The notes beneath the pieces are model-generated. The model was not told the origin of the DNA, ran no database searches, and saw nothing but the letters and a program-made list of their open reading frames with translations. This document shows positions 3,387-28,104 of a stretch of 32,000 bases of DNA, piece after piece. The position numbers and the translations under genes are program-made. Numbering within the stretch: the first letter of the stretch is position 1; every line of letters begins with the position of its first letter. Source of the DNA: Alphaproteobacteria bacterium (GTDB lineage: Bacteria > Pseudomonadota > Alphaproteobacteria > Rs-D84); assembly GCA_009784235.1 (NCBI GenBank), contig WRCC01000002.1, positions 16,373 to 48,372 of the forward strand. Direction: 5' to 3'.

Positions 3387-3421
3387 ATTTATGATTTCGA
3401 ATTTATGTTTTATGATTCCGG
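3387..3421. repeat. Heptamer-array module, ATTTATG family, copy C4
   Basis: atttatg atttcga atttatg ttttatg attccgg. It matches the mnmE copy at 5513-5544 at 28/32 positions. It ends 2 nt before the SD (aaggag, 3424-3429) of the CDGSH gene. Confidence 0.7.
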
Positions 3422-3435
3422 CAAAGGAGTCTTTA

Positions 3436-4137
3436 ATGTCCGAACAAAAATTACCATATATAAAAATCACAGAAAATGGGCCATATTTACTGTACGGCGC
3501 GACGAAAATTTCTGAAAAAATCATACTGACCGATGAAAATGGTATATCAGTAAAATACGGCGATGGAAAAACATTTGAAATAAAATCCGACCCGGTATGC
3601 CTGTGCCGATGCGGACATTCGAAAAATGCACCCTTTTGTGACGGCAGTCACGCAGACGCAATGTTTATCGGAACGGAAACGGCCGTCTTCACGCCAATAA
3701 TGAAACAACCGTCCGCCGAAGCAATTCGTGGCCCAACGCAAACATTATTGGACAACCAACAATATTGCGCTTTCGCACGCTTCTGTGACCGTGGCGGGCG
3801 AGTATGGAATTTGGTAATGGAAGGCGGCAAAGCAGCAGATAAATTATCCGCCGAAGAAGCCAACCTATGTCCCGCCGGGCGATTGATGATGTTTACAAAC
3901 GATGGTAAATTACTGGAAGAAAACACAGAACCACAAGTTCACACAATCGAAGATGGCGGATTGCATATCAGTGGACCATTATGGATTCGTGGCGGTATCC
4001 GCGTCGAATCCGCAGACGGCCGTTCGTACGAAGTTCGCCAGAAACAAACGTTGTGCCGATGCGGCGCATCCGCGAACAAACCGTTCTGCAACGGCGCACA
4101 CGCATCAATGCGATTCAAGGCAAAAACAGCGAAATAA
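3436..4137 (+). CDS. CDGSH-type iron-sulfur domain protein (two CDGSH motifs)
   Basis: Start chosen at ATG 3436, 6 nt after SD aaggag. The track start at 3391 lies inside repeat C4. Motifs: CRCGHSKNAPFCDGSH and CRCGASANKPFCNGAH. Confidence 0.9.
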   Translation: MSEQKLPYIKITENGPYLLYGATKISEKIILTDENGISVKYGDGKTFEIKSDPVCLCRCGHSKNAPFCDGSHADAMFIGTETAVFTPIMKQPSAEAIRGPTQTLLDNQQYCAFARFCDRGGRVWNLVMEGGKAADKLSAEEANLCPAGRLMMFTNDGKLLEENTEPQVHTIEDGGLHISGPLWIRGGIRVESADGRSYEVRQKQTLCRCGASANKPFCNGAHASMRFKAKTAK

Positions 4138-4291: not shown

Positions 4292-5641
4292 TTATTTCCC
4301 AAGGCACAGTTGGCCAAATGTTGCATCCATAATTTCATCCGCGCCGATAACGCCCAGAATCCGCCCGATGGCATCCGCCGCGCGATTTACATGTTCGGCG
4401 AAAATATCTGGATTTAGGATTTCTGATTTATGATTTATGATTTTTAATTCATTCGCCGCTTCTTCCAACAATTCTTTCGCGCGCGCATTAACAACCACAT
4501 CCGATTCCGCACCGTCCAGCATTTCATGAACGCGTTGTTTTATCGCGTACAACAATTCCGGAATCCCTTCACTCGTCAGCGCGGAAACGCGTAGGGGCGC
4601 GTATTCGCGCCCTGGGGCGCAAGTATGCGCCCCTACATTCAAATCGCATTTATTATAAACGATGATTTCTCTATCCGCACCTGGGTAAACCACCCCGTCC
4701 GCGCCTCGCGGCGCGTCCACCCCTCCAAAGGAGGGAAATACACGCAAAACCAAATCTGCATTTTCGATTTCGGCGTTTGTTTTTTCGATTCCTATTTTTT
4801 CAATTTCATCCGTTGCATCACGCAATCCAGCCGTATCAGACAATCGCACCAAATATCCATCGATATCTATTTCAGCGGACACAACATCGCGCGTTGTACC
4901 CGGAATATCGGAAACTATCGCACGGGATTCGCCGACAAGACGATTAAACAATGATGATTTGCCCGCGTTAACCGGTCCGACCAATGCGATGTTAAATCCG
5001 CTGCGCACGGCGCGTGCGGCCGCGCTGCGCGCCAATACATTCGATATTTCATCATGCAATTTTTGCGTCCGCGCCACCAAAGTCTCACCGATATTCGCAG
5101 GGAGCTCATCGCTTGGATAATCCAGCATCGCCGCAGAATACGCCGCGATTTCAATCATCTGTAACCGCCAATTTTCATACACCACTGAATCCGCGCCGGC
5201 AGCAGAGCGCAATGCTGCACGCCTTTGCGCATCCGTACGCGAATCCAGTAAAGCGCACAGGCCATCAACTTCGACCAAATCCATTTTACCGTTATCAAAT
5301 GCACGCCGCGTAAATTCGCCGGGTTCGGCCATACGCGCGCCATGGCTGCGTAAGCAATCAAATAATTTTTGAATAACCGCATTCGAACCATGAACATGAA
5401 ATTCGACAACGTCTTCACCAGTAAAAGAATTCGGCGCGGCAAAATAAATCGCAATGGCGCGGTCAATTATATTGCTGTCGGCATCAATTAAGTCGGCAAG
5501 GTACGCGTGGCGATTTATGATTTCTGATTTATGATTTATGATTTGTTTGAATAATTTTTGCAAATACGTGCCAGATACGCGCACCACCGCAACGCCTGCA
5601 CGTCCATGTCCCGACGATAATGCAAAAATTGTATCGGTCAT
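4292..5641 (-). CDS. mnmE: tRNA modification GTPase MnmE (TrmE)
   Basis: Start at ATG 5641 (MTDTIFALSSGHGRAGVAVVRVSG). G1 GPVNAGKSSLFN, G2 GTTRD, G3 DTAG, G4 NKCD, G5 SAL, and the C-terminal CLGK motif. Carries three in-frame repeat insertions, listed as separate repeat features. Confidence 0.95.
   Translation of the reverse strand: MTDTIFALSSGHGRAGVAVVRVSGTYLQKLFKQIINHKSEIINRHAYLADLIDADSNIIDRAIAIYFAAPNSFTGEDVVEFHVHGSNAVIQKLFDCLRSHGARMAEPGEFTRRAFDNGKMDLVEVDGLCALLDSRTDAQRRAALRSAAGADSVVYENWRLQMIEIAAYSAAMLDYPSDELPANIGETLVARTQKLHDEISNVLARSAAARAVRSGFNIALVGPVNAGKSSLFNRLVGESRAIVSDIPGTTRDVVSAEIDIDGYLVRLSDTAGLRDATDEIEKIGIEKTNAEIENADLVLRVFPSFGGVDAPRGADGVVYPGADREIIVYNKCDLNVGAHTCAPGREYAPLRVSALTSEGIPELLYAIKQRVHEMLDGAESDVVVNARAKELLEEAANELKIINHKSEILNPDIFAEHVNRAADAIGRILGVIGADEIMDATFGQLCLGK
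4412..4446. repeat. Heptamer-array module, ATTTATG family, copy C1 (inside mnmE)
   Basis: atttagg atttctg atttatg atttatg attttta. The stretch 4411-4443 matches 5512-5544 at 32/33 positions. On the minus strand it encodes KIINHKSEILN. Confidence 0.9.
4591..4638. repeat. 48-nt GC-rich double-hairpin element, family A, copy A1 (inside mnmE)
   Basis: gtaggggcgcgtattcgcgccctggggcgcaagtatgcgcccctacat is identical to 5984-6031. It contains hairpins gggcgcg-tatt-cgcgccc and ggggcgca-agta-tgcgcccc, and its termini GTAGGGGCGC/GCGCCCCTAC are complementary. It encodes VGAHTCAPGREYAPL between G4 (NKCD) and G5 (SAL). Confidence 0.95.
5513..5547. repeat. Heptamer-array module, ATTTATG family, copy C2 (inside mnmE)
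   Basis: atttatg atttctg atttatg atttatg atttgtt. It encodes QIINHKSEIIN near the MnmE N-terminus. Confidence 0.9.
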
Positions 5642-5643
5642 TT

Positions 5644-5847
5644 TTACCTGTTCATACATTCTATGCATTTTGGCAGATGTTGTTGTAATATGGATTGTTC
5701 CCACAATTGTCTTTTCTGTTTCTGCATATCCTTAGAGACCGCACAATTCTGACAAGCCGTGGACAAATAGTACCCCCGCTTGCAGCCACAGCATTTGCAG
5801 TCATTTTCTACAACACGAATGGAATAAAGACCACATAGTTTTTTCAT
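5644..5847 (-). CDS. Small Cys-rich protein (67 aa), putative zinc-ribbon-like, unknown function
   Basis: MKKLCGLYSIRVVENDCKCCGCKRGYYLSTACQNCAVSKDMQKQKRQLWEQSILQQHLPKCIECMNR. Its ATG (5847-5845) overlaps the ruvA stop as ATGA, and its TAA ends 2 nt before the mnmE ATG. Cys pattern is C-x-CC-x-C ... CxxC ... CxxC. It fills the otherwise uncalled 200-nt gap between ruvA and mnmE. Confidence 0.4.
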   Translation of the reverse strand: MKKLCGLYSIRVVENDCKCCGCKRGYYLSTACQNCAVSKDMQKQKRQLWEQSILQQHLPKCIECMNR

Positions 5848-6413
5848 TTTGCAATCTCCTTTAATGCTAAACGCACCAATGCACCGGTATCGACATCCGG
5901 ATTTTCGCGGACCAATTTTTGCGCCAGTTCGGCGCAGTCCGCCCGGCGATAACCCAATGTTTCCAGCGCGGACAACAGGTCTTGTAGGGGCGCGTATTCG
6001 CGCCCTGGGGCGCAAGTATGCGCCCCTACATCAACCTTACCCTTTAATTCCACGATAATTTTTTCGGCGACCTTTTTGCCAACGCCCGGTGCGGATGAAA
6101 TCGTTTTTGCGTCCCCCGTCATAATTGCAGACATCAAAACATCTGGTTTCAGTGTCGATAAAATCGCCATCGCGACTTTTGGTCCAACGCCGGATACTGT
6201 GGTCAATTGATTAAATAAATCTTGCTGTGCCAGCGATGCAAATCCGAACAAACGAATTGAATCTTCACGGACAATGGTTTCAACCCAAAACGCCACAGTT
6301 TCGCCAATTTTCGAATATTCCGGCGTAAAAACTTTATACCCCACCCCATTAACCATCAGAATAATATATCCATCGCCGATATGGTCGATAATCCCTTGCA
6401 ATTTTCCAATCAT
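5844..6413 (-). CDS. ruvA: Holliday junction branch migration complex subunit RuvA
   Basis: Start at ATG 6413 (MIGKLQGII...GYIILMVNGVGYKV). HhH region LTTVSGVGPKVAMAILS ... ISSAPGVGKKVAEKIIVELK, and a C-terminal domain III (LSALETLGYRRADCAELAQKL). Family A repeat sits in the domain II-III linker. Confidence 0.95.
   Translation of the reverse strand: MIGKLQGIIDHIGDGYIILMVNGVGYKVFTPEYSKIGETVAFWVETIVREDSIRLFGFASLAQQDLFNQLTTVSGVGPKVAMAILSTLKPDVLMSAIMTGDAKTISSAPGVGKKVAEKIIVELKGKVDVGAHTCAPGREYAPLQDLLSALETLGYRRADCAELAQKLVRENPDVDTGALVRLALKEIAK
5984..6031. repeat. 48-nt GC-rich double-hairpin element, family A, copy A2 (inside ruvA)
   Basis: Identical 48 nt to 4591-4638, in the same orientation and the same reading frame (VGAHTCAPGREYAPL). 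Confidence 0.95.
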
Positions 6414-17388: not shown

Positions 17389-17947
17389 CTTTCTGGGCTC
17401 TTTCGAAACAGTTGAATCCTTGCCGAAACGGCGCGCGCCAGAATTCGCATTTATCGGGCGCAGTAATGTCGGCAAATCATCGCTGCTGAACGCACTTGTC
17501 GGACAACGTGTTGCCCGCACATCAAACACGCCCGGCCGCACGCAAAGCATTAATTTATTTGACTGGGATGGTATTATACTGGCCGATTTACCGGGATACG
17601 GTTATGCCAAGGCATCCAAGACCGATATTGTCCGCTGGGCAGACCGTCTTGAAAAATATTTGTGTTCGCGCGACCAATTGGAACGATTGTTTATCCTGGT
17701 CGATTCGCGGCACGGACTGAAAGATTCTGATATTGATATGATGGATTTTTGTGATGCGAATGCATTGCCTTATCAAATCGTTTTAACTAAATTTGATAAA
17801 TCAAAAAAATCTGATATCGAAAAAATTCGGGCCGACATTGAATGCGAAATTGCCAAACGCGGCGCCGCATGTCCCGCAATTATCATAACATCCGCCGAAA
17901 AGAAAACCGGAATTCCAGAATTAAAAAAAGAAATATGCGCGCCATAA
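17378..17947 (+). CDS. engB: Ribosome biogenesis GTP-binding protein EngB/YihA
   Basis: FIGRSNVGKSSLLNAL...TSNTPGRTQ...DLPGYGYA...LTKFDK. Overlaps rsmI by 11 nt. Confidence 0.95.
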   Translation: MAINFLGSFETVESLPKRRAPEFAFIGRSNVGKSSLLNALVGQRVARTSNTPGRTQSINLFDWDGIILADLPGYGYAKASKTDIVRWADRLEKYLCSRDQLERLFILVDSRHGLKDSDIDMMDFCDANALPYQIVLTKFDKSKKSDIEKIRADIECEIAKRGAACPAIIITSAEKKTGIPELKKEICAP

Positions 17948-20451
17948 ATAATATTTTTTGCGCATCAAATCCGGCGCGTCTGCCGGATGCTTTGTGGGAA
18001 TTTTTATCCGGCCGCGATTTTTCAAACGATATTATATTTTTGCCGTCCCGGCGCGCTGTTCGCACAGTCGAACGCATGATTGTTGAAAAATCCGGCGCAA
18101 TATTATTGCCAAAATTGATAGCACTTGGCGAAGGTGCGGACGAAGATGATATCGATGCGCCGACCGATACTGTTTCCAATTTTGAACGAACACTCGTTCT
18201 GGCAAAAATGTTATCCGCATCGATGAATTCATCTGTGTCGGCCGCACTGCCCGTTGCGCGCGATTTGATTCGGATGACTGATTATTTGGAAAACGAAGGA
18301 ATTGATGCCGCCGACATAAATTGGTCCGATTTGGTTGGCGAAAAATATGCTGTGCATTTTCGGGACAAAGCACGATTCCTTGATTTGGCGGCCCGCGCCC
18401 TGCCCCTTGTATTCGCTGGGCGCGAGACATCGTCACAGCGCCGTAACAAAGATATACGCGGATGGATTGGCCATCTGAAAAATAAAACGTCCGGAAAAAT
18501 TATCGTATGCGGTTCAACCGGTTCTGTACCGGCGACAGCCGATTTGATGGCATACGTCGCTGGGCTTGATAGCGGATGCATTATTTTACCCGGGAAAATA
18601 ACATCTGCCAACCACCGACTACCAATCACCGACCCATATTATTCCGAAGCACAATTTCTACAACGAATAAACGCAGAACCAGATGACATTAAAATTATCA
18701 ACACCGGCGAAAATACAATAGATTTTTTAAACCACGCATTTTCCAATACATCTTCAAACTTCGAACTTCAAACTTTAAACTTCACAAGAATTGACTGCAC
18801 CCGCGAATCCGAAGAAGCCGAAGTTGTCGCAGAAATTACCGCGGATGCAATCGCTGAAAACAAGACTGTTTTAATCGTAACGCCAGATGCCGCCGCAAAC
18901 CAGCGTATTCGCGAATCATTCGCGCGCCGGAATATCACAGCCGATTTTTCCGGCGGAATATCTGGCGCCACATCACCGCTTGGGCGAATGATTTTACGAA
19001 TATTGGATGCCAGCGATGAAATTTATTCCGCATATAAAAAAACTAATCTTTACGGTGCGGTTATAAATATATTTGAAAAATCACACAGCGCAAAAATCAG
19101 TTTGTTTGATAACGAAGAACTGGTCACAATATTCGATACAATCCGCGAATTATCGGATATATTGCAAAACAATGATTTGGAATTGACCGCCGCGGATTTG
19201 CGAACGATTGTCGCGGACATGCTGTCATCCGCGCAAATTCGCCCGCCCATGATTGATAATGCGCGCATCTCTGTATTGGGCACGATTGAATCAAGGTTGC
19301 AGACCGCCGATATTGTGATACTGACCGGCCTGAACGAAGGCATGTTCCCAGCAATGGGCTATGAAAATCCATGGCTGCCGCGGCGAATATGCGATGAAAT
19401 CGGTCTGCCGCCACCGGAACGCAAGGTATCACTGATGGCGCTTGATTTTATAACATTATCATGCGCACGAACGGTCTATTGGACACGCAGCAAATCATCC
19501 GACGGCACAGTTACAACAGAATCACGCTTTTTGTCGCGTGTTGCAGTTGCATGTAGGGGCGCATGCAATCCGGGGTCCCCGCACGAACGAAGTTCGAGTG
19601 GGGTGGGTGCGTCCAGCACACCCCTACAAAACGCACGCGAACGCGATAATATTCCATTAAATCCGCTGGGTTATCGCGCACCAACGCCGCCGGCCAGCCG
19701 CGGCGATGTATGGGTTACTGAACTGGAATTATTAATCCATAATCCGTATGCTTTTTATGCGAAAAACATTTTGGGATTGCGTCCAAAAGACGACCCATGG
19801 AAACAAATCGGCGCCAAAGAATTCGGGATATTGGTTCATGATGTAATAGAGTCCATAGTCAACAGTCAACAGTCAACAGTAAATGATATCGTTGCGAAAC
19901 TGGATGCAAAGGCGCGGGAAATTTTGGAGCCCGGTTCAGTACTATTTCATTTTTGGCATAATCGATTTGTCGAAATGGCACCGGAAATTAAAAAATTAAT
20001 TGACCGCACGACCGGTAATTCGCGCACCGAAATCGCGGGTTCTGTTAATATCGCAGGACGCAATGTCCGTGCACGCGCAGATATGATTTTGTCCGATAAC
20101 ACAGGCGATTATGTCATAGATTTCAAAACCGGTGCAACGCCGTCAAAAGCGCAACTGGACGCGGGCAATATGCCGCAATTACCGCTGGAAGCATATATGC
20201 TGCAACGCGGCGGATTTGCCACCGCGCCGCAAACATCGAATATAGTTATCCAATTTTTACAATTAAAAAACCGTGATGTTCGAACGATTGAATATAGTGG
20301 CACGGACGCACAAAAAATGATTGATGCAGCGGTACAAAAAACATCCGAATTATTTGGTCGGTATAGCACTGATTTCGAGCCGTACGAATACCGCGAAACA
20401 TCGGATGGAAAATACAAAGCATACGACGATTTGGCAAGAATTGATGATTAA
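17935..20451 (+). CDS. addB: Double-strand break repair protein AddB (alphaproteobacterial type, PD-(D/E)XK nuclease C-terminus)
   Basis: Start at ATG 17935 (MRAINNIFCASNP...), overlapping the end of engB. The C-terminal block GDYVIDFKTGATPSKAQLDAGNMPQLPLEAYML is typical of alpha AddB. Contains three in-frame repeat insertions. No addA lies adjacent. Confidence 0.8.
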   Translation: MRAINNIFCASNPARLPDALWEFLSGRDFSNDIIFLPSRRAVRTVERMIVEKSGAILLPKLIALGEGADEDDIDAPTDTVSNFERTLVLAKMLSASMNSSVSAALPVARDLIRMTDYLENEGIDAADINWSDLVGEKYAVHFRDKARFLDLAARALPLVFAGRETSSQRRNKDIRGWIGHLKNKTSGKIIVCGSTGSVPATADLMAYVAGLDSGCIILPGKITSANHRLPITDPYYSEAQFLQRINAEPDDIKIINTGENTIDFLNHAFSNTSSNFELQTLNFTRIDCTRESEEAEVVAEITADAIAENKTVLIVTPDAAANQRIRESFARRNITADFSGGISGATSPLGRMILRILDASDEIYSAYKKTNLYGAVINIFEKSHSAKISLFDNEELVTIFDTIRELSDILQNNDLELTAADLRTIVADMLSSAQIRPPMIDNARISVLGTIESRLQTADIVILTGLNEGMFPAMGYENPWLPRRICDEIGLPPPERKVSLMALDFITLSCARTVYWTRSKSSDGTVTTESRFLSRVAVACRGACNPGSPHERSSSGVGASSTPLQNARERDNIPLNPLGYRAPTPPASRGDVWVTELELLIHNPYAFYAKNILGLRPKDDPWKQIGAKEFGILVHDVIESIVNSQQSTVNDIVAKLDAKAREILEPGSVLFHFWHNRFVEMAPEIKKLIDRTTGNSRTEIAGSVNIAGRNVRARADMILSDNTGDYVIDFKTGATPSKAQLDAGNMPQLPLEAYMLQRGGFATAPQTSNIVIQFLQLKNRDVRTIEYSGTDAQKMIDAAVQKTSELFGRYSTDFEPYEYRETSDGKYKAYDDLARIDD
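18752..18786. repeat. Heptamer-array module, CTTCAAA family, copy D1 (inside addB)
   Basis: cttcaaa cttcgaa cttcaaa ctttaaa cttcaca encodes SSNFELQTLNFT. It matches the reverse complement of the left arm of 25835-25869 at about 28/32 positions. Confidence 0.85.
19553..19627. repeat. 75-nt GC-rich palindromic element, family A-like, copy A3 (inside addB)
   Basis: gtaggggcgcatgcaatccggggtccccgcacgaacgaagttcgagtggggtgggtgcgtccagcacacccctac. It has the same GTAGGGGCGCAT...CCCCTAC termini as family A. An internal 12-bp hairpin ccccgcacgaac-gaa-gttcgagtgggg has one mismatch. 75 nt equals 25 codons (RGACNPGSPHERSSSGVGASSTPL). Confidence 0.8.
19850..19884. repeat. Heptamer-array module, AGTCAAC family, copy E1 (inside addB)
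   Basis: agtccat agtcaac agtcaac agtcaac agtaaat encodes SIVNSQQSTVN. Confidence 0.75.
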
Positions 20452-25820: not shown

Positions 25821-25834
25821 CCACTCGACCTTTT

Positions 25835-25909
25835 AAGTTTGAAGTAGGAAGTTTGAAGTTTGAAGAAATTATCTCTTCCGGCTTCAACCTTCAAACTTTC
25901 TCCTTTGAC
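25835..25909. repeat. Head-to-head dimer of the CTTCAAA/AAGTTTG heptamer module (copy D2)
   Basis: Left block 25835-25869 is aagtttg aagtagg aagtttg aagtttg aagaaat. The centre is tatct. Right block 25875-25909 is cttccgg cttcaac cttcaaa ctttctc ctttgac. Confidence 0.85.
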
Positions 25910-27340: not shown

Positions 27341-27426
27341 TGGTGGGCATGGATAGATTCGAACCATCTCAGTCTAAGACAACAGATTTACAGTCTGCCC
27401 CGGCTCTCCGACTCCGGCGCATGCCC
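27341..27426 (-). tRNA. tRNA-Tyr (GUA)
   Basis: 86 nt: GGGCATG..GCAGA-CTGTAAA-TCTGT, a long variable arm, T-arm GATGG-TTCGAAT-CTATC, acceptor CATGCCC, and an encoded ACCA. Confidence 0.93.
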
Positions 27427-27437
27427 AAAGCAAATCT

Positions 27438-27512
27438 TGGTGCGGGCAGAGGGAATCGAACCCTCATCTCAAGCTTGGAAGGCTCGCATACTAGCCTTTG
27501 TACTATGCCCGC
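27438..27512 (-). tRNA. tRNA-Gly (UCC)
   Basis: 75 nt: GCGGGCA-TA-GTAC..GTAT-G-CGAGC-CTTCCAA-GCTTG-AGAT-GAGGG-TTCGATT-CCCTC-TGCCCGC-ACCA. Confidence 0.93.
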
Positions 27513-27982: not shown

Positions 27983-28104
27983 GTCATTGCGAACACAGTG
28001 AAGCAATCCAGTTAATAAATTATTTTTATAAAATTGTAGGGGCGCATATTTGCGCCCCTTTATCAATCAACTGGATTGCTTTGTCGCTTACGCTCCTCGC
28101 TGTC
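27983..28104. repeat. Palindromic repeat family B, copy B2, with a family A-type hairpin nested in its loop
   Basis: Arms are gtcattgcgaacacagtgaagcaatccagtt (27983-28012) and aactggattgctttgtcgcttacgctcctcgctgtc (28069-28104). The loop contains gtaGGGGCGCAtattTGCGCCCCt (28036-28059). It fills the gap between two convergent genes. Confidence 0.8.

Follow-up and report, generated by a model that had tools for sequence, protein, structure and literature searches.

Tandem repeats with a unit of exactly seven nucleotides have been known for decades to be enriched in bacteria, almost only from intergenic DNA, and we know of no established mechanism for this enrichment. The short tandemly repeated repetitive (STRR) sequences in the strict sense are those of heterocystous cyanobacteria, with the units CCCCAGT, TTGGTCA and CAACAGT; to our knowledge, neither a mechanism nor a function has been established for them. 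Here we describe two heptamer arrays that lie in frame inside mnmE, the gene for the tRNA-modification GTPase MnmE, in a 32,000-nt stretch of DNA (the window) from an uncultured alphaproteobacterium of the lineage Rs-D84 (assembly GCA_009784235.1, contig WRCC01000002.1, positions 16,373 to 48,372), together with the repeat population to which they belong.

Two further heptamer families are mainly intergenic (PMC4692102, PMC4679880). These are the G-quadruplex heptamers GGGNATC of Xanthomonas and Nostoc, which prefer about four units and occur genome-wide within ~50 nt of starts and stops (PMC4692102), and the TAACTGA repeats of Beggiatoaceae, Cyanobacteria and Bacteroidetes, which come in sets of 2-6 copies, mostly just upstream of starts (PMC4679880). 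Repeats that sit in frame within unrelated housekeeping genes, at permissive sites, are known as Rickettsia palindromic elements (RPE) and as intragenic miniature inverted-repeat transposable elements (MITE) or repetitive extragenic palindromes (REP) (PMC10969869, PMC1779305). Finally, 7-bp repeats control HMW1A in Haemophilus influenzae, a phase-variable locus driven by simple sequence repeats (PMC8262952).

The arrays described below share period, size and dispersal with the heptamer families and in-frame tolerance with RPE. What is distinct in this clade is that arrays inside conserved open reading frames (ORFs) are length-neutral, positionally ancient and concertedly evolving. They resemble STRR in their tandem 7-nt units, in having several unit families per genome at many dispersed loci, and in that only period 7 is enriched. 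Unlike STRR in the strict sense, their host is alphaproteobacterial by its MnmE relatives and belongs to an uncultured clade of metagenome-assembled genomes (MAGs) labelled Rickettsiales or Alphaproteobacteria; the mnmE unit is AAATCAT, and the arrays are often in frame in conserved housekeeping genes, at most ~35 nt long, conserved in position and made of units that turn over in concert. One other unit in the window, AGTCAAC in addB, we take to be the STRR unit CAACAGT. The heptamer unit, the number of about four units, the genome-wide spread and the placement by starts and stops are shared with GGGNATC, but the present arrays are A/T-rich or mixed, cannot form G-quadruplexes and are frequent in ORFs. 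Like TAACTGA, AAATCAT is a heptamer with a stop in every forward frame and is patchy across phyla in a metagenome scan; TAACTGA, however, is a single dominant unit that almost never occurs in ORFs, whereas this clade has many units and in-frame copies mended by a point variant. RPE offer the precedent of in-frame repeats in alphaproteobacterial housekeeping genes, and a 48-nt palindrome shared by mnmE and ruvA (see below) fits them well. RPE are nevertheless ~100-150 bp long, palindromic and add residues, whereas the mnmE arrays are 33-nt direct tandems with no net gain, having neither the size nor the terminal inverted repeats or palindrome of RPE and MITE. With phase-variable repeats the arrays share a non-triplet unit, a change of which would switch expression, and intergenic AAATCAT arrays elsewhere are indeed polymorphic; mnmE, in contrast, is a housekeeping gene with only 4.7 units, deeply conserved rather than hypervariable and identical in the four assemblies compared. 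A search of the literature for STRR unit sequences or in-frame heptamer repeats in Rickettsiales found nothing specific.

Two length-neutral arrays in mnmE

The mnmE coding sequence occupies 4292-5641 on the minus strand and encodes 449 aa (MTDTIFALSS...CLGK). The assignment comes from the ORF list, the Pfam domains TrmE_N, MnmE_helical and MMR_HSR1, and matches to MnmE structures in the PDB at 2e-77. The protein aligns over its full length to the solved structures 1xzp, 9hip and 3geh, and carries the GPVNAGKS, DTAG, NKCD, SAL and C-terminal CLGK motifs of an MnmE/TrmE GTPase. The N-site array (5512-5544, minus) is (AAATCAT)4.7 including one AAATCAG unit; it encodes IINHKSEIIN, residues 34-43, at the end of helix α1 and in the α1-β3 loop. 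The C-site array (4411-4443, minus) encodes IINHKSEILN, residues 401-410, in the last turn of a helix and the inter-helix loop ahead of the C-terminal helices. Both are 33-nt ATTTATG tandems of 4.7 units, identical at 32/33 nt with one mismatch. They have the 26-mer GATTTCTGATTTATGATTTATGATTT in common, which has exactly two occurrences, 4418-4443 and 5519-5544. Tandem Repeats Finder assigned both a period of 7, with 4.7 copies and matches of 88-92%, that is, head-to-tail 7-nt units. With three mismatches allowed, the array pattern matched eight times in the window and never in dinucleotide shuffles.

The two arrays are 1101 nt, or 367 codons, apart and therefore share a reading frame, giving the flanked peptides Q-IINHKSEIIN-R at the N site and K-IINHKSEILN-P at the C site. 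An earlier note on this DNA had claimed the near-identity with its shared 26-mer, the common orientation and frame, and the duplicated peptide, and all of these were borne out. Its further point, that gain or loss of one 7-nt unit would frameshift mnmE, holds arithmetically. A pure AAATCAT tract has stops in all frames of both strands, as 7 and 3 share no common factor: (AAATCAT)n presents TAA every 21 nt in each frame, and the complementary strand presents TGA likewise. Both mnmE copies bear the identical TAA-to-GAA variant unit (ATTTCTG; AAATCAG on the coding strand, read TCA-GAA). Direct copying from one site to the other might be read from this shared G, but the argument is weakened, since the frame needs one TAA removed per 21 nt anyway.

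A second independent assembly (L003) has the same DNA arrays in mnmE, and two further JGI contigs encode a protein (P0121) identical to the query MnmE. Across these four assemblies, identical in protein, no variation in unit number was seen. As the four agree, the arrays are not an assembly artefact, which disposes of the alternative that the earlier note had allowed for. Read from the sequence, the module is a genuine repeat, duplicated in frame and part of what appears to be an intact MnmE reading frame. The single arms in mnmE have no inverted partner nearby and no palindrome inside one arm. Sharing their orientation, the two cannot pair with each other; they are 84-91% complementary to the arms of an intergenic ATTTATG hairpin described below.

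Comparison with orthologs decided how the arrays sit in the protein. Thermotoga maritima MnmE (1xzp) aligns without gaps through both arrays, and Escherichia coli MnmE (9hip) differs in length there by 1-2 residues. At the N site, array-free lineages among 120 homologs have a segment of the same length, for example FINKKIFTPRHAYF, IINKSEFKNR, IISNKDQIKPR or IINSDKKIIPR. In these lineages the C-site segment has 10-12 residues, against 12 in the query, which is 2 aa longer than its nearest relatives. Array-free orthologs with equivalent residues at both sites include P0005, L004, L005, gut clades and the two solved structures. The earlier note had taken the segments for tolerated insertions and had named equivalent residues in repeat-free orthologs as what would speak against this; such residues are present at both sites, and for the N site, gap-free against array-free orthologs and solved structures, the insertion model is rejected. 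RPE and MITE would leave added residues relative to orthologs; here the N site aligns without a gap and the C site has 2 extra residues. The alignments indicate that the mnmE arrays replace native segments of the same length and are not net insertions.

In the AlphaFold model of MnmE (mean predicted local distance difference test, pLDDT, 73.5), the N array forms the last two residues of helix 28-35 and then coil 36-45, ahead of strand 46-52. The C array forms the last turn of helix 386-404 and then coil 405-410, ahead of helix 411-429. The loop location expected by the earlier note is thus recovered in the model as a helix end plus loop at each site. The native N-site loop of array-free relatives reads I-N-K-(K)-S-E-(I/F)-x-N/P-R, and the array, read in frame as II-NHKSE-II, fits the native order of hydrophobic pair, five polar residues and hydrophobic pair of the α1-β3 connection. 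The native C-site sequence has ~47% ungapped identity to the array by hand count, a value that is uninformative on homologous conversion. The loop that holds the N-site array is also the insertion point of a whole DUF559/Vsr-like endonuclease domain (PF04480, PF18741) in a 676-aa MnmE homolog (P0002).

A clade-wide population of period-7 arrays

The N-site array is not confined to this copy of the gene, being shared at the same codons with relatives 64-70% identical. The arrays at this site are AAATCAT with one synonymous difference from the query in L001, a perfect AAATCAG x4.7 encoding IRNQKSEIRN in L085, TCATCCA encoding SSIIHYPSSII in L086, and AAGGCAT, ending in the native ATC-ATC-GAC, in L210. 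A fifth genome, L084, has a decayed array at this site in a locus otherwise without arrays. With a tree inferred from the remainder of MnmE, this distribution implies that the ancestor of the clade already had the N-site array, which GC-rich inserts then overwrote in the two closest relatives and which one array-free relative lost. No close relative has the C-site array. It arose in the query lineage and is most likely a younger copy from this family, with the same boundaries and the same stop-removing G as the N-site array.

Other arrays in the clade occupy corresponding places with different units. At the mnmE C site, L086 has an array of the unit GATTACC, which extends the native GAT-TAC of an xYDIF motif. 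The 499-aa P0035 MnmE (L210 493-1992) contains three heptamer arrays and, at its C site, a complete (GGAGACA)5...(TGTCTCC)4 hairpin with (AAATCAG)4.6 nested in the loop, all in frame; the arrays of this protein are net insertions. In the window, addB (17842-20451) has two in-frame arrays, (CTTCAAA)4.7 at 18752-18784 (plus; SNFELQTLNF) and (AGTCAAC)3.4 at 19857-19880 (plus; VNSQQSTVN). At both sites L086 has arrays of unrelated units in the same alignment columns with zero gaps; array-free AddB orthologs have the same (modal) length at site 1 and are ~3 aa shorter than the query at site 2.

In intergenic DNA the repeats take the form of inverted hairpin pairs, and inside genes that of single arms. 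A hairpin of (ATTTATG)4, a loop and (CATAAAT)4 at 10364-10442 (minus; -30.9 kcal/mol, z -8.5) fills the space from the MltA stop to the DciA start. In the three genomes where this hairpin was compared (query, L085 and L086) its units are CATAAAT, CATAAGG and CACTAnn, and both arms have changed together. A degenerate ATTTATG array at 3387-3417 (plus) lies just upstream of the ribosome-binding site and start of a CDGSH iron-sulfur protein gene; L001 has a perfect ATTTATG array at the same place (3606-3630), its MnmE being merely 66% identical to that of the query. A further intergenic inverted pair, of the CTTCAAA family, lies at 25831-25900. An Rfam scan of the window matched only two adjacent tRNA genes (27344-27512, minus), and a known RNA family was rejected for the arrays. 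The unit gave no convincing match to Fur, IHF, CtrA or alphaproteobacterial LexA consensus sites.

The population is specific for period 7. The window holds seven tandem arrays at period 7 and none or one at each other period from 3 to 12, with none in shuffles. In the array-bearing loci of the clade, 111 kb contain 29 period-7 arrays (~261/Mb) and at most two at any other period, against 8 in 78 unrelated mnmE loci (1.34 Mb, ~6/Mb), an enrichment of ~40-fold. The clade sample was ~130 kb of loci rather than whole genomes, and the controls were distant genomes from a profile scan of genome contigs with an MnmE alignment, in which, among the matches listed, L004 and L005 are relatives. Among the genome-contig matches listed, these two are the closest to the query mnmE, a gene of alphaproteobacterial type (57% and 53% identity). 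As they are recorded under the names Bacteroides fragilis and Muribaculaceae (MAGs), the bins may be mislabelled or contaminated. Units are diverse (AAATCAT, AAACTTC and AACAGTC in the window, more than 15 across relatives), and array lengths run from 17 to 35 nt, mostly ~25-35 nt or 4-5 units. The L084, L087 and L005 loci have no arrays, and at the mnmE sites show diverged unique sequence of equal length.

A metagenome scan found AAATCAT arrays on at least 120 contigs with GC contents from 0.21 to 0.63. Among the contigs listed, the arrays are mostly pure, non-coding, 25-36 nt long and frequently paired, and the few in long ORFs use the same IINHKSE frame. The search pattern allowed only G or T at the variant position, so that the frequency of GAA is biased and unusable as evidence. 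Strain-level polymorphism in unit number was seen in other organisms: contigs with 98-99% identity differ at one intergenic locus, where the counts are 4, 6, 6 and 7 units, and at another locus the count is 4 or 5. One intergenic array, compared over five contigs of 86-99% identity, consistently has exactly 4 units. In a coding array of 61 nt (L135), every third unit is the G variant, a 21-nt super-period, and since this stop-removing G recurs every third unit, growth in 21-nt steps is indicated. In two groups of contigs (L094/L115/L139/L160 and L134/L169), 98-99% identical, AAATCAT arrays of 4 to 7 units abut start codons (AAATCAT-c-ATG, AAATCAT-a-ATG), a pattern like classic contingency-type variation.

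GC-rich palindromes in mnmE and ruvA

The earlier note had called the rest of MnmE canonical. This holds for the domains, the G motifs and the CLGK end, but not for residues ~335-350 and ~302-321, which are GC-rich repeat-derived segments. The first corresponds to a 48-nt in-frame palindrome at 4591-4638 (minus; NVGAHTCAPGREYAPLRV), whose twin lies in frame in the linker between domains II and III of ruvA (5984-6031, minus). The two are identical at 48/48 nt and a half copy lies at 28034-28058. Their ends are GTAGGGGCGCG...CGCCCCTAC, and MnmE and RuvA both contain the peptide VGAHTCAPGREYAPL. REP/REPIN proper are GTAG-headed, GC-rich imperfect palindromes that form inverted doublets in many copies and are accompanied by a REP-associated tyrosine transposase (RAYT). 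The present palindrome, a REP/REPIN-like candidate, is a GTAG...CTAC doublet with two identical copies and half of another in the 32 kb, and it folds strongly (-36.2 kcal/mol, z -6.0). AlphaFold pLDDT falls below 50 at MnmE residues 336-346, within the palindrome segment. The second segment (~4680-4745, minus; FPSFGGVDAPRGADGVVYPG) bears a CCCTCC-N3-GGAGGGG mini-hairpin that is found again in the mnmE of relatives, and pLDDT is below 50 at residues 312-321. In-frame repeats thus occur in unrelated housekeeping genes, the arrays twice each in mnmE and addB and the 48-nt palindrome in mnmE and ruvA.

In RuvA the palindrome makes the linker merely 1 aa longer than in relatives, and the L087 linker (GA-ACAGGTGTAPMQ) resembles a decayed copy. 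The ruvA of another relative (the P0004 genome; L089 7900-7971) has an in-frame inverted heptamer pair (GGCACTG / CAGTGCC), and its product is 244 aa long against ~190 aa in other relatives. Between ruvA and mnmE, the window has a small Cys-rich ORF (5644-5847, minus; CKCCGCK...C..C), called as a 67-aa gene in L002 (9795-9998). It has no Pfam match, and relatives have a NUDIX gene, a different small ORF or nothing at this place.

Origin of the arrays and what they mean

We favor, with a probability of roughly 0.6, the reading that these are heptanucleotide repeats of an STRR-like kind, sustained by slippage or template switching under the filter of selection. The arrays would be generated, and their units kept uniform, by replication slippage or short template switches, and some arrays were probably also copied between loci. 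Once formed, they would stay in place for long periods, their positions fixed and their units drifting together; slippage combined with intrastrand template switching would be expected to change all units, and both arms of a hairpin, in concert. Those that survive in ORFs would be the ones that keep frame and segment length, lose the stop by the TAA-to-GAA change and suit the local structure. Neither mnmE copy would then add to MnmE function, and the mnmE unit number would be frozen because a one-unit change would frameshift the gene.

Several observations weigh against this reading. Slippage alters length, yet the coding arrays are strictly length-neutral. No unit-number variation was seen in this genome, though merely four assemblies were compared. 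The N-site array of L001 agrees with that of the query in 11/11 residues and 10/11 codons, which exceeds the neutral expectation, while elsewhere in mnmE the two genomes have 64% DNA identity and only 44% of conserved-residue codons are identical. Single units recur within a genome, AAATCAT at five places in the window, ATCATCC twice in L086 mnmE and AAATCAG twice in P0035 mnmE, which in-situ evolution alone does not predict. Lastly, arrays in the clade do not exceed ~35 nt. The length neutrality, the near-identity with L001, the recurring units and this ceiling keep two other explanations in contention, one based on mini-elements and one on elements acting as nucleic acid.

In the first, which we consider unlikely, the arrays are miniature mobile or copied elements, half-copies of heptamer hairpins comparable to RPE, that inserted in frame in permissive loops and were later trimmed to length. 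Mobility would account for the recurrence of one unit family, both at several loci of a genome and, among relatives, at three different sites in mnmE, and for the spread of AAATCAT arrays over metagenomes of such different GC content. It would also fit the boundaries and G variant shared by the C-site and N-site copies and the GC-rich REP-like palindromes in frame within the same genes. The P0035 arrays are real net insertions, with a full hairpin and a nested AAATCAG array, but the N site shows zero net length gain even when distant outgroups are included. Conserved positions with different units would demand repeated insertion at the same codon followed by exact length compensation. In addition, units differ nearly everywhere and some clearly derive from local native sequence, and neither terminal repeats nor target duplications nor a transposase were seen, RAYT genes not having been searched for.

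We regard as less probable again that the arrays are functional cis-elements kept even in ORFs, whether as protein- or RNA-binding sites, as elements of mRNA structure or antisense pairing, or as phase-variation switches for mnmE. A role of this kind has been proposed for the TAACTGA and GGGNATC families, which lie near start and stop codons and are proposed regulators (PMC4679880, PMC4692102). In the clade, the N-site DNA is conserved above protein-level expectation, and arrays keep their place both upstream of the CDGSH gene and in the MltA-DciA interval, the hairpin arms co-varying. However, the units vary between genomes at one site, which leaves no single conserved binding sequence, and L084, L087 and L005 have lost all arrays in the sampled loci. 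Pairing is suggested by the 84-91% complementarity of the mnmE arrays to the intergenic hairpin arms, but the two mnmE arrays, being in the same orientation, offer no mutual pairing, and there is no Rfam match. The array fixed at 4 units in five contigs would suit a retained element. Phase variation of mnmE is arithmetically possible, but the four assemblies contain no frameshifted or unit-number variants that would support it.

More doubtful still is a combined reading, in which an undescribed process of this clade rewrites ~33-nt tracts as heptamers of unchanged length at fixed coding and intergenic positions, and the arrays are kept for a DNA- or RNA-level function of their own (e.g., binding or pairing). 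The MnmE, AddB and RuvA segments would then be dictated by selection on the nucleic acid and not on the protein. It is very improbable that the resemblance is due to chance, to convergence of codon usage on a native IINxKSEIxNR motif or to an artefact of assembly: the native loop of array-free relatives is already similar, so that the likeness of the N-site peptide is partly ancestral, but the C site has no such native motif, shuffles gave zero matches, and these explanations are refuted by the shuffles, the ~40-fold period-7 enrichment and the agreement of four assemblies.

The mnmE case belongs to a broader phenomenon that spans the lineage, and of the two it is the broader one that holds more interest. 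Where heptamer arrays lie in frame in conserved genes, orthologs provide an exact ruler for their position, length and age. In this clade, the ruler shows together length-neutral occupancy, persistence at the same codons over deep divergence, and concerted change of units and hairpin arms. These three properties constrain any mechanism, and the existence of array-bearing and array-free sister genomes makes the question testable. For the proteins of such genomes, it means that the loop sequences of conserved proteins can follow DNA repeat dynamics, and that repeat-derived peptides of this kind are not to be taken for functional insertions.

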